Origin: Candidatus Heimdallarchaeota archaeon
Lineage (GTDB): Archaea > Asgardarchaeota > Heimdallarchaeia > JABLTI01
DNA length: 23,749 nucleotides
Assembly (NCBI GenBank): GCA_019058275.1
Contig: JAHLVW010000003.1
Coordinates: 1-23,749, forward strand
Reading direction: 5' to 3'
Within the stretch, counting starts at the first letter, position 1. Each line of letters begins with the position of its first letter. The notes beneath the pieces were generated by a model. That model did no database searches. It saw only the letters and a program-made list of their open reading frames with translations, and was not told where the DNA came from. Both the position numbers and the translations under genes were made by a program. Positions 16,843 to 21,089 of the stretch are shown in pieces.

Positions 16843-17678
16843 ATGTTTTGTACAGTTAATGATTGTGAGATATACTATGAAGTAGTTGGTGAAGGTAAAC
16901 CAATACTAATGTTGCATGGTTTCCCACTCGATCATCAGATGATGAAAGGATGTATGGAGCCTATCTTCAAACATCGTCATGGTTGGAAACGAATATACTT
17001 TGATTTACCTGGTATGGGGAAATCGAAAGTAGCTGATCATGTAAAGTGTACAGATGATATAGTAGATATTGTATTGGGTTTCATCAAAGAAGTAATTGGT
17101 GATGAGAATTTTGTTATAGCTGGTGAATCTTATGGAGGAGTTATGGCTAGAGCAATCATTTATCATCAACCTAAAAAAGTTGATGGGTTGTTCATCTTCT
17201 GTCCAGCAACTAAATTTGGCGAAGAAACTATAGATTTACCAACCAGAAATGTTCTGAGGATTGATGAAGACTTTGTTAATACTCTGGAAAAAGATGAAAA
17301 GGAGTTTTTCCAATCTTTCGCAGTTGTTCAAAACAAGTATACATGGCATCGTATAAAAAATGAGTGTTTTCAGGTTTCACTATAAGAGACAAAGAATTCA
17401 TTGCAAGGTACTCTAGTGAAGAATCTCGTAGACTGACATATGATATTGACAATCTAAAGAAACCATTTGATAAACCTTCTTTATTACTAACCGGTAGACA
17501 AGATCATTGGACTGGATATAAAGGAGCTTGGGACTTCTATGAAAATTATCCTCGAGGATCATATGTAGTTTTAGACAAAGCAGGTCATGGTTTGCAATAC
17601 GAACAAGTTTTACTATTCAATGTGTTAGCTGATGAATGGCTTGATAGAGTTGAAGAAGAACTGGAGGAGATGAACTAA
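16843..17678 (+). pseudogene. Alpha/beta-fold hydrolase split by a 1-nt frameshift near 17364-17370
   Basis: LHGF, DLPGMG and nucleophile GESYGG in the first ORF. Asp (GRQD) and His (AGHGL) in the overlapping second ORF. Confidence 0.82.
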
Positions 17679-20072: not shown

Positions 20073-20579
20073 ATGTCTAGTGAGCCTTCAAGAAAGAGAT
20101 CATGGATATATGGATCTATAATTACAGTTTGTTTTATAGCAATAGCTATTTTGATAGGTTATTTTACCGATTCATGGGAAGGTGCTCTAACTTTATTTGT
20201 TTTAGCAGGCCTAGGATTGGTAATTACAATACTATATTCTACTCTATTTTATATCAAAAAACTTGAAATACCAAATATTAATTTTGAGTTAATTTCGATT
20301 TTGGATATTGATAAGGAAGAACAAAATACTGAGGATAAAAGAAATAACACTGATGAAAAAGTCTACTACTATGTTGAAAGGATAAGCAATCCACCAAAGG
20401 AAGAAAATTGCAGAATATCATTAAGGTCAATAGAAAAAGAGCGAGAAGCAATCCAATGTCTTTTTTGTAAATCATTTTTCATTGAAGATTATCTAAAGAG
20501 ATGGCTGTTAGAGGATGAAATCTGTCCTGTATGTAAAGCTGTCCTAATGAGTTCATTTGATGAAATTGAGAATACTTAA
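20073..20579 (+). CDS. Membrane-anchored (2 TM) protein with C-terminal degenerate RING finger, putative E3 ligase
   Basis: Two N-terminal TM helices. CRIS-x12-CLFC-x3-FIEDYLKRW-x6-CPVC. Confidence 0.75.
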   Translation: MSSEPSRKRSWIYGSIITVCFIAIAILIGYFTDSWEGALTLFVLAGLGLVITILYSTLFYIKKLEIPNINFELISILDIDKEEQNTEDKRNNTDEKVYYYVERISNPPKEENCRISLRSIEKEREAIQCLFCKSFFIEDYLKRWLLEDEICPVCKAVLMSSFDEIENT

Positions 20580-20603
20580 AAGCATATAAATCCAAATTCA
20601 ATT

Positions 20604-21089
20604 ATGCGTTTTAATAGATATTTTGAATTAATAACTTGGATAACTCTTATTGGTGGTATAGTCCTTGCAGGAGTTGGGTTATACAAATTCGGTTTTGCTG
20701 AAAATTCTGATTATGCAATTTTGATGTTGGTTATTGGATTAGTTATGCTAACAATAGGTATAGTTTTGTTTGTTATTAATGAAAGAAATCAAAGAAAAAA
20801 GAAATCTATAAAAGAGAAACCAACTAGACAACAACGATCTGTTAATTATTCTATAAGAACGCAACTAGATGATGAAAAACCAATGAAAAAAGGGAAGTTA
20901 ATTGCTTCCATTGTTGATTATCCAGTTGTAGGGGAAGTTTGTATGATATCAAAGCTTCCTATAGAGGATGATGACAATGTCTTGCAATGCCCATTTTGTA
21001 GTTCTTACTTCATAAAGAAATATCTTGAGGAATGGACTAAGAACAATAAAACTTGTCCAGTATGTAAGAGCATTATACTTGAAGAATAA
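20604..21089 (+). CDS. Membrane-anchored (2 TM) protein with C-terminal degenerate RING finger, paralog of the upstream gene
   Basis: Two TM helices and a basic linker. CMIS-x12-CPFC-x3-FIKKYLEEW-x6-CPVC. Confidence 0.75.
   Translation: MRFNRYFELITWITLIGGIVLAGVGLYKFGFAENSDYAILMLVIGLVMLTIGIVLFVINERNQRKKKSIKEKPTRQQRSVNYSIRTQLDDEKPMKKGKLIASIVDYPVVGEVCMISKLPIEDDDNVLQCPFCSSYFIKKYLEEWTKNNKTCPVCKSIILEE

Follow-up and report, generated by a model that had tools for sequence, protein, structure and literature searches.

A tandem pair of membrane-anchored RING-like proteins with a conserved one-zinc ligand pattern in a Heimdallarchaeota genome

Introduction

RING proteins are the largest class of ubiquitin ligases (E3s) in eukaryotes, and the zinc-poor derivatives of the RING, namely the SP-RING, the U-box and the hemiRING, are usually regarded as eukaryotic inventions. 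SP-RING and U-box domains start alike, with the first Cys followed by a hydrophobic residue and then by Ser or Thr. Here we describe two adjacent genes, A and B, that encode small proteins with two predicted transmembrane helices and a C-terminal RING-like domain in which most ligands of one zinc site are replaced. The genes were found in a stretch of 23,749 nucleotides from Candidatus Heimdallarchaeota archaeon (assembly GCA_019058275.1, contig JAHLVW010000003.1), which is called the window below and to which all positions refer unless a contig or locus is named.

SP-RING domains bind one zinc ion (PMC12751080). They retain the zinc that is distal to the ubiquitin-conjugating enzyme (E2) and are without the proximal one, and the reverse is true of the UBR4 hemiRING (PMC10873205). 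One-zinc relatives of the RING can be active ligases (PMC10873205). In the bacterium Simkania negevensis, SNE_A08690 and SNE_A19470 have conventional RINGs in which ligands for the first zinc have been lost and which "probably coordinate only a single ion"; their initial likeness to SP-RINGs gave way to a reinterpretation as degenerate RINGs (PMC12591485). Archaeal RING E3s have been found to be active in vitro with their own ubiquitin-activating enzyme (E1), E2 and ubiquitin (PMC5654768; bioRxiv 10.1101/2023.07.25.550441). No description of the one-zinc subfamily presented here was found in the limited library of literature that was searched, and its novelty is unproven.

A preliminary description of the window had interpreted A and B as archaeal membrane-bound E3s that resemble an intermediate between the RING and the SP-RING or U-box. 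Our preferred reading, to which a probability of about 0.55 was assigned, is that they are small membrane-tethered RING-type ubiquitin ligases with a one-zinc RING.

Results

Zinc ligands and E2-contact positions

The features of the two genes are as follows.

Gene A (P0001), 20073-20579, + strand: 168-aa open reading frame (ORF) with a two-transmembrane (2-TM) hairpin, an acidic linker and a one-zinc RING-like domain
Gene A hydrophobic hairpin, 20103-20249, + strand: predicted transmembrane helices at about residues 11-31 and 37-59, from hydropathy
Gene A RING-like domain, 20391-20549, + strand: residues 107-159, from zf-RING_2 (21.1 bits) and family alignments
A-B spacer, 20580-20603, no strand: 24 nt
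Gene B (P0002), 20604-21089, + strand: 161-aa ORF with a 2-TM hairpin, a basic low-complexity linker and a one-zinc RING-like domain
Gene B hydrophobic hairpin, 20619-20780, + strand: predicted transmembrane helices at about residues 6-28 and 37-59, from hydropathy and AlphaFold2
Gene B RING-like domain, 20922-21080, + strand: residues 107-159, from zf-RING_2 (24.3 bits), the PDB profile match and the domain model
Linchpin residue 155 of P0002, 21066-21068, + strand

The motif of gene A reads C113-R-I-S116 ... C129-x2-C132 ... I137 ... Y140 ... W144 ... C151-P-V-C154 and that of gene B reads C113-M-I-S116 ... C129-P-F-C132 ... I137 ... Y140 ... W144 ... C151-P-V-C154-K155, with identical residue numbering in the two proteins. 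The motif is invariant in 18 orthologs. Site 2 consists of four Cys (C129, C132, C151 and C154) arranged as C-x2-C plus C-x2-C, and site 1 keeps C113 alone, with S116, I137 and Y140 at ligands 2, 5 and 6. Three of the four site-1 ligands are therefore gone, and each domain has five Cys left, four of them at site 2, in place of the eight ligands of a two-zinc RING. This agrees with the preliminary description, which had reported an intact site 2, an identical loss of site 1 in both proteins and a retained E2-contact Trp.

The ligand assignments come from an alignment to the RING-H2 domains of Arkadia and RNF165, in which S116 corresponds to ligand 2, I137 to ligand 5 and Y140 to ligand 6. In the same alignment, C132 corresponds to ligand 3 and S134 falls at the usual position of the ligand-4 His, and C129 lies three residues upstream of ligand 3. 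The remaining ligand of site 2 is presumably C129. All four Cys of this site are invariant or nearly so in 172 relatives.

At the sequence level, the positions that contact the E2 are strongly conserved among the relatives with the one-zinc pattern (the one-zinc group, see below): I115 in 96%, W144 in 100% and P152 in 99%. A Lys or Arg directly after the last Cys, the "linchpin" position (K155), is present in 71% of the one-zinc group versus 23% of the two-zinc group. The loop after ligand 2 (residues 121-125 of P0002, window 20964-20978) is acidic (Glu/Asp) in the one-zinc group and basic (Arg/Lys) in the two-zinc group. Together with the shift at the linchpin position, this might reflect a changed E2 or ubiquitin-like partner.

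Cys is retained at ligand 1 in the starts of SP-RING and U-box domains as well. The possibility that C113 is a catalytic Cys, as in RBR- or RCR-like enzymes, was set aside, as this residue is ligand 1 in the two-zinc sister proteins; a structural role for C113 seems the simpler reading.

Predicted fold

When the profile of the 18 orthologs was compared with the PDB, the RING-H2 domain of Arkadia was the best match (E 1e-4), followed by RNF165/Ark2C, RNF4, ZNRF3, RNF13, gp78 and Hrd1 down to E 0.03. The structure of P0002 was then predicted. The full-length model had a predicted local distance difference test score (pLDDT) of 67.7 overall and of 77-83 in the C-terminal domain, and Foldseek and a VIA second look, both run on it, concurred with the RING assignment. 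Since matches to the transmembrane hairpin crowded the VIA list for this model, a domain-only model was made from 34 sequences of the window and of related loci. It reached a pLDDT of 89.1 and a predicted template-modelling score of 0.72, with elements in the order strand-strand-helix (beta-beta-alpha).

A Foldseek-independent comparison of the domain model with 48,161 PDB representatives returned almost solely RING-type domains among the best matches. The top match was RNF12 (Z 7.9, root mean square deviation (rmsd) 1.6 A, 58 residues aligned), and the next were Ark2C (Z 7.8), ZNRF1 (7.7), RNF165 (7.7), HRD1 (7.4), RNF38 (7.4) and RNF13 (7.2). These seven best matches are all RING E3 domains, mostly RING-H2, with Z 7.2-7.9 and rmsd 1.6-2.7 A over 53-60 residues. 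U-boxes scored lower, with Z 6.4 and 5.8 for Prp19 and 6.2 for entry 3lrq. SP-RING structures were outside the 50 best matches, which is no evidence that the folds differ. A structure search of the Atlas gave RING clusters at template-modelling scores of 0.34-0.42, with plant ATL-like clusters among the nearest models; a feature search of the same resource was uninformative, with all scores below 0.8. The domain is thus predicted to have the RING beta-beta-alpha fold, as had been proposed, and the model informs on fold and on neither zinc content nor function.

A plain CxxC...CxxC zinc ribbon behind a membrane anchor, and not a RING, would also have four Cys ligands, and the Pfam families Zn_ribbon_19 and Zn_ribbon_15 gave weak sub-threshold matches. 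This explanation was rejected as scarcely credible. The profile and structure searches yield RING domains almost exclusively, a helix with an invariant Trp and the C-P-x-C are hallmarks of the RING, and the family grades continuously into RINGs with all eight ligands.

Membrane hairpins and topology

In 19-residue Kyte-Doolittle windows, two hydrophobic peaks per protein rose above 1.6, at about residues 9-31 and 36-62 of P0001 (windows from 9-27 to 44-62) and 6-28 and 36-61 of P0002, and AlphaFold2 placed helices at residues 2-31 and 36-70 of P0002, in agreement with the two transmembrane helices per protein noted earlier. Only weak sub-threshold matches to membrane segments were obtained for the two proteins with NCBIfam. 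In both proteins, positive charges stand before the first helix and after the second and the short loop is acidic. The flanking charges of gene A are S-R-K-R and K-K, and in gene B the basic run R-N-Q-R-K-K-K-S-I-K-E-K follows the second helix. Since positive charges flank the hairpin, the positive-inside rule suggests an N-in/C-in topology in which the C-terminal RING domain would face the cytoplasm. The charged linker of about 40 residues after the hairpin was poorly modelled (pLDDT about 40).

Family and origin of the one-zinc state

A and B belong to a family that is unnamed and was defined by the profiles of this analysis. We refer to it as the Heimdall 2-TM RING family. Both proteins have its defining features, which are two N-terminal transmembrane helices, C-P-x-C at ligands 3/4 and W-x6-C-P-V-C. 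When 1.84 billion representatives were searched by profile, 1,097 proteins matched with E <= 1e-3 and 141 of these reached E <= 1e-10, and many of the matches were 150-200 aa long and aligned end to end. The family was present in all genomes of the class that were searched (41/41).

Ligands were classified in 172 family proteins. The full eight-ligand set, C-x2-C ... C-P-x-C-x-S-x-F-H-x2-H ... W ... C-P-V-C, was found in 93 of them. In 75, the replacement was coupled: ligand 2 was Ser or Thr, ligand 5 was usually Ile or Leu and never His, and ligand 6 was Tyr or, in rare cases, Leu or Asn. No more than 4 proteins had a mixed pattern. The flanks of the two classes are near-identical (C-M-I-C-K-L compared with C-M-I-S-K-L), and L-Q-C-P-x-C, W-L and C-P-V-C are shared. 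The genome that carries A and B has both classes, and its two-zinc 2-TM RINGs include the protein at C61:66406-66966 (-), which matches the domain profile with E 5e-16.

A maximum-likelihood tree built without the three ligand columns required seven changes between the one-zinc and two-zinc states, and a topology uniting all 75 one-zinc sequences was not rejected by the approximately unbiased test (p 0.41). The simplest history is therefore that the one-zinc state arose once or a few times within the Heimdall family. Five further families of the class were represented by 30 genomes, in which every best match inspected retains both His, and the full one-zinc pattern occurs in one genus of the class only among the genomes sampled. 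The one-zinc variant is a conserved subfamily derived from the Heimdall two-zinc 2-TM RINGs.

Profiles of the eukaryotic zinc-poor domains were also searched. The proteins of A and B had no match to zf-MIZ (PF02891), zf-Nse (PF11789) or U-box (PF04564) at E <= 10. In six-frame searches of the genome at E <= 1, zf-MIZ and zf-Nse had no match on the contig of A and B (C34) and the U-box had no match anywhere.

These findings bear on the proposal that A and B are a true evolutionary intermediate between the RING and the SP-RING or U-box. The start of the motif, in which the first Cys is kept and is followed by x-I-[ST], recalls SP-RINGs and U-boxes, and the host is an Asgard archaeon. The zinc site that was lost is also the one that is missing in SP-RINGs (PMC10873205). 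The nearest relatives, however, are Heimdall two-zinc RINGs with near-identical flanks, the full pattern is confined to the one genus, U-box, zf-MIZ and zf-Nse are unmatched at E <= 1, and the Z scores of U-boxes fall short of those of RING-H2 structures by more than 1 unit. Ligands of the first zinc have been lost independently in bacterial RINGs too (PMC12591485). We therefore did not retain this part of the preliminary description, which appears very improbable. The likeness to SP-RINGs reflects loss of the same zinc site in parallel; parallel evolution and not an intermediate is argued for by the two-zinc nearest relatives, the best fit to RING-H2 and the unmatched SP-RING and U-box profiles.

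Several other variants of the domain were seen. A third site-1-deficient RING of the same genome, at C54:12686-13432 (+) (L018:1435-1626), reads C-M-V-S ... K ... L; it has a one-residue loop insertion and a different, longer N-terminal part in a protein of 249 aa. Leu at ligand 6 is common to this protein and its relatives P0142, P0146 and P0154 and may represent a separate loss. In a genome from another family of the class (L047, G018:C210), the ORF at about 1197 (+) has C-A-I-S at ligands 1-2 and keeps both His. As only ligand 2 is replaced, this RING might represent a half-way stage or have a zinc site with three ligands. Several two-zinc paralogs of the A/B genome have a C-x2-C ... C-x2-C zinc ribbon directly before the RING, and their N-terminal parts are varied, ranging from multi-pass membrane regions to that of a 1,022-aa protein. 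These ribbon-plus-RING paralogs are located at:

C42:24340-25401
C98:125506-126576
C1:94150-95082
C94:32643-33167
C94:49099-52164
C78:6091-6597

The ubiquitin system of the genome

The preliminary description had assumed a ubiquitin system in this genome, and genes for a catalytic E2, a ubiquitin ending in Gly-Gly and E1-like proteins were indeed found. The E2 search was limited to PF00179 and gave three matches, of which only a 152-aa protein on contig C30 (C30:28161-28616) has the H-P-N motif and a catalytic Cys. This E2 is 56-91% identical across the class and was found in 20 of the 21 genomes searched; judged by its sequence, it is a general UBC-type enzyme. Ubiquitin is encoded on contig C115 by a 77-aa ORF ending in G-G (L004:1477-1710; Pfam match at C115:48900-49094). 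One of the three ThiF/E1-like genes of the genome is on C115 as well (C115:27130-27828), and its paralogs are on C28 and C33. The contigs of the E2, of ubiquitin and of this E1-like gene are thus other than that of A and B.

The other two PF00179 matches, L002:1102-1854 (-) on C89 and L003:1162-1854 (-) on C33, are without the Cys and have coiled-coil tails. They look like ubiquitin E2 variant (UEV)/Vps23-like proteins. A 212-aa gene after the UEV-like gene on C89 may be Vps28-like.

The genome has 16 RING-type matches with the family profile (E <= 1e-3) and 20 with zf-RING_2 (E < 0.1). One catalytic PF00179-type E2 thus stands against about 16-20 RING-like proteins, and A and B have no genomic linkage to E1, E2 or ubiquitin. 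Both facts would suit a membrane zinc finger that works outside the ubiquitin system and binds a peptide or protein partner, such as a membrane protease or a transporter, without an E2. We consider such a role rather improbable given that the positions that contact the E2 in eukaryotes (I115, W144, P152 and K155) are strictly conserved, and that the RING family and the E2 are each so widespread in the class (41/41 and 20/21 of the genomes searched, respectively).

Divergence, selection and decay of the gene pair

Genes A and B lie on the same strand with a short gap between them and are probably co-transcribed. Their adjacency is retained in five further genomes (G003, G004, G005, G007 and G009). 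They had been called paralogs, and this is true of their C-terminal 53 residues (42% identity, E 5e-14), outside which no similarity was detected.

The ortholog of gene A at the locus L048 is 84-85% identical, and identity drops to 25-37% for copies from less closely related species of the genus. Orthologs of gene B are 40-93% identical; between the more distant species, gene B is about 47% identical and the neighboring genes are 57-80% identical. Ratios of nonsynonymous to synonymous substitution rates (dN/dS) were calculated against the closest ortholog (L048), that is, from one pair at low divergence. They were 0.51 for gene A overall, 0.74 for its N-terminal part, which is nearly neutral, and 0.18 for its RING part, and 0.29 overall and 0.15 in the RING part for gene B. 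The RING parts of both genes are under purifying selection. Gene A is the fast-evolving upstream partner and gene B the conserved downstream partner.

The gene A counterpart at G007:C112:15983-16450 is interrupted by one in-frame TAA, and that at G009:C14:106936-107151 (L052:2672-2899) is a 75-aa remnant without the membrane anchor and with Tyr at ligand 7. Gene B was retained where gene A had decayed. A third one-zinc paralog of 177 aa is solitary at another locus in four relatives and was not found in the A/B genome (93% complete). The genus has repeated cases of 2-TM RING genes in tandem, as pairs and as triplets, with both one-zinc and two-zinc proteins (L035, L036 and L038); L035 and L036 are two-zinc pairs. 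At G010:C8:4022-4378, the upstream copy of a tandem 2-TM RING pair contains two TAG codons. As a whole, the 2-TM RING genes look like a ligase-like family with birth-and-death turnover.

BARD1, Bmi1 and MdmX are eukaryotic examples of RING proteins that serve as non-catalytic partners. The one-zinc domain could similarly be a pseudo-E3, either as the partner of an active RING (A with B, or another RING of the genome) or as an adaptor for an E2 or a substrate. The recurrence of tandem 2-TM RING pairs of both zinc forms and the fast evolution of gene A (dN/dS 0.51) are in line with this, as is the position of the lost site close to the E2 (geometry from PMC10873205). Nevertheless, conservation of the E2-contact residues and of the Lys/Arg linchpin is higher in the one-zinc group than in the two-zinc group, which would not be expected of an inactive partner, and gene B persists where gene A has decayed, so that we regard a pseudo-E3 as an alternative to be kept in mind but an unlikely one.

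A complex of A and B, which the preliminary description had suggested as a heterodimer, may form, but gene B cannot depend on it, because the upstream partner has decayed in some relatives. The proposed role in membrane-protein quality control is a guess from the architecture of the proteins, and the neighboring genes give no hint of it.

Neighborhood and host

A divergent cupin gene is found upstream of gene A and a convergent DegV gene downstream of gene B. The block nucleotidyltransferase / cupin / A / B / DegV / radical SAM is kept in several species of the genus. The locus does not have the placement of srfp-type operons, in which the RING gene is next to genes for ubiquitin, E1, E2 and an Rpn11-like protein.

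Two neighboring loci in the window look like pseudogenes. The 296-aa ORF at 15875-16765 matches only the interaction and DNA-binding domains of UvrA and would therefore be a UvrA fragment. At 16843-17678, an alpha/beta hydrolase is split into the overlapping ORFs 16843-17385 and 17364-17678.

The archaeal (Asgard) host that had been supposed was confirmed by the records of close orthologs, which are named Candidatus Heimdallarchaeota, Asgard group or Promethearchaeati. Family members were also seen in metagenome-assembled genomes labeled Bathyarchaeia and Zixibacteria (P0017 / L052, DATKZI010000014.1, and P0146, HUU77294.1). Both labels probably stem from mis-binning. That of L052 is probably a binning or naming error, because the locus has the same cupin/A/B/DegV synteny.

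Discussion

The conserved ligand pattern, the predicted RING fold, the retained E2-contact positions and the ubiquitin system of the genome are brought together by our preferred reading of A and B as membrane-tethered ligases with a one-zinc RING. In such a ligase, Ser116, Ile137 and Tyr140 would pack and form hydrogen bonds in the empty zinc site, as in the U-box and SP-RING. The domain would dock the ubiquitin-loaded E2 of the same genome through I115, W144 and P152, and Lys155 as the linchpin would promote the discharge of ubiquitin. Substrates could be membrane or membrane-proximal proteins that are met through the fast-evolving transmembrane hairpin or the linker. Genes A and B may act together, although this would not be required.

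Several points weigh against this reading. The zf-RING_2 (PF13639) scores of 21.1 bits for P0001 and 24.3 bits for P0002 (E 3.8e-4 and 3.7e-5) are below the curated Pfam cut-off of 27.3, even though the family profile clearly shows RING homology. Because the lost zinc site adjoins the E2-binding loop, docking of an E2 might be changed or abolished. A and B are not near genes of the ubiquitin system, and their neighbors (cupin, DegV, nucleotidyltransferase and radical SAM) are conserved and functionally unrelated. At least the gene A copy is dispensable, as it is interrupted or truncated in some relatives. Burroughs, Iyer and Aravind reportedly proposed in 2011 that many prokaryotic RING-like fingers function outside ubiquitin pathways.

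A more far-reaching version of the ligase reading is that the one-zinc proteins sit in the membrane as active ligases, work as an A-B pair and attach ubiquitin to membrane proteins, which would make them the archaeal counterpart of ATL, RNF13 and Hrd1-like enzymes. We consider this version speculative and doubtful. If it were true, Heimdall archaea would have acquired a zinc-free site 1 and the ubiquitylation of membrane proteins either before eukaryotes or independently of them. In any case, an Asgard lineage that has E1, E2 and ubiquitin of its own expanded its membrane-anchored RINGs, and one subfamily lost the zinc site that SP-RINGs lack through a fixed Ser/Ile/Tyr replacement. Since two-zinc and one-zinc sisters share a genome, they form a natural matched pair for the role of the E2-proximal zinc. 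These small archaeal proteins could also be used to probe whether membrane ubiquitylation predates eukaryotes. The finding alone leaves the picture of U-box and SP-RING origin unchanged.

Among the known domains, the SP-RINGs of Siz/PIAS and Nse2/Mms21 are similar to A and B in that, by sequence pattern, the loss affects the E2-proximal zinc site and spares the distal one (ligands 3, 4, 7 and 8). They differ in the make-up of the distal site, which is C-x-H...C-x2-C in SP-RINGs and four Cys with C-x2-C in A and B. A and B are in addition membrane-anchored, archaeal, without a SUMO/Ubc9 context and independently derived from an Asgard RING family. The U-boxes of CHIP, Prp19, Ufd2 and the plant PUBs share with A and B a zinc-free site-1 region and the Ile, Trp and Pro at the E2-contact positions. 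U-boxes, however, have no zinc ligands, whereas A and B have four invariant Cys, and RING-H2 structures score higher in the structural comparison. The UBR4 hemiRING is likewise a one-zinc RING-related E3 domain, for which E2 binding and activity have been shown (PMC10873205). It keeps the proximal zinc, its distal zinc is replaced by a water-mediated hydrogen-bond network, and it needs the large helical UZI subdomain (PMC10873205); in A and B, it is the proximal-site ligands that are lost.

The prokaryotic cases are different in context. The RINGs of Simkania are isolated cases in a bacterial intracellular pathogen, while A and B are part of a conserved, expanded and membrane-anchored subfamily in a host that has its own ubiquitin system. 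In the srfp of Caldiarchaeum subterraneum, C3/H4 is shifted by two residues and there is an extra Cys ("C3B"), which may be compared with the C-P-x-C of A and B (PMC5654768). The archaeal srfp and the Helarchaeia RING E3s, which are RING-H2-like, are nonetheless soluble proteins whose genes lie in ubiquitin operons and which are described as having all zinc ligands.

The transmembrane RING-H2 E3s of eukaryotes, such as the PA-TM-RING protein RNF13, plant RMR1 and ATL, Hrd1 and gp78, are built in the same order, with a cytosolic RING-H2 behind the membrane anchor, and the RINGs of RNF13, RMR1, Hrd1 and gp78 were among the best structural or profile matches. These E3s bind two zinc ions and have other membrane or luminal parts, and orthology is not implied. 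The two-zinc Heimdall 2-TM RINGs have two transmembrane helices, a charged linker, a C-terminal RING and C-x2-C at ligands 3/4, as do A and B. The two forms differ at ligands 2, 5 and 6, which are Cys, His and His in the two-zinc proteins and Ser/Thr, Ile/Leu or another residue, and Tyr in the one-zinc proteins.

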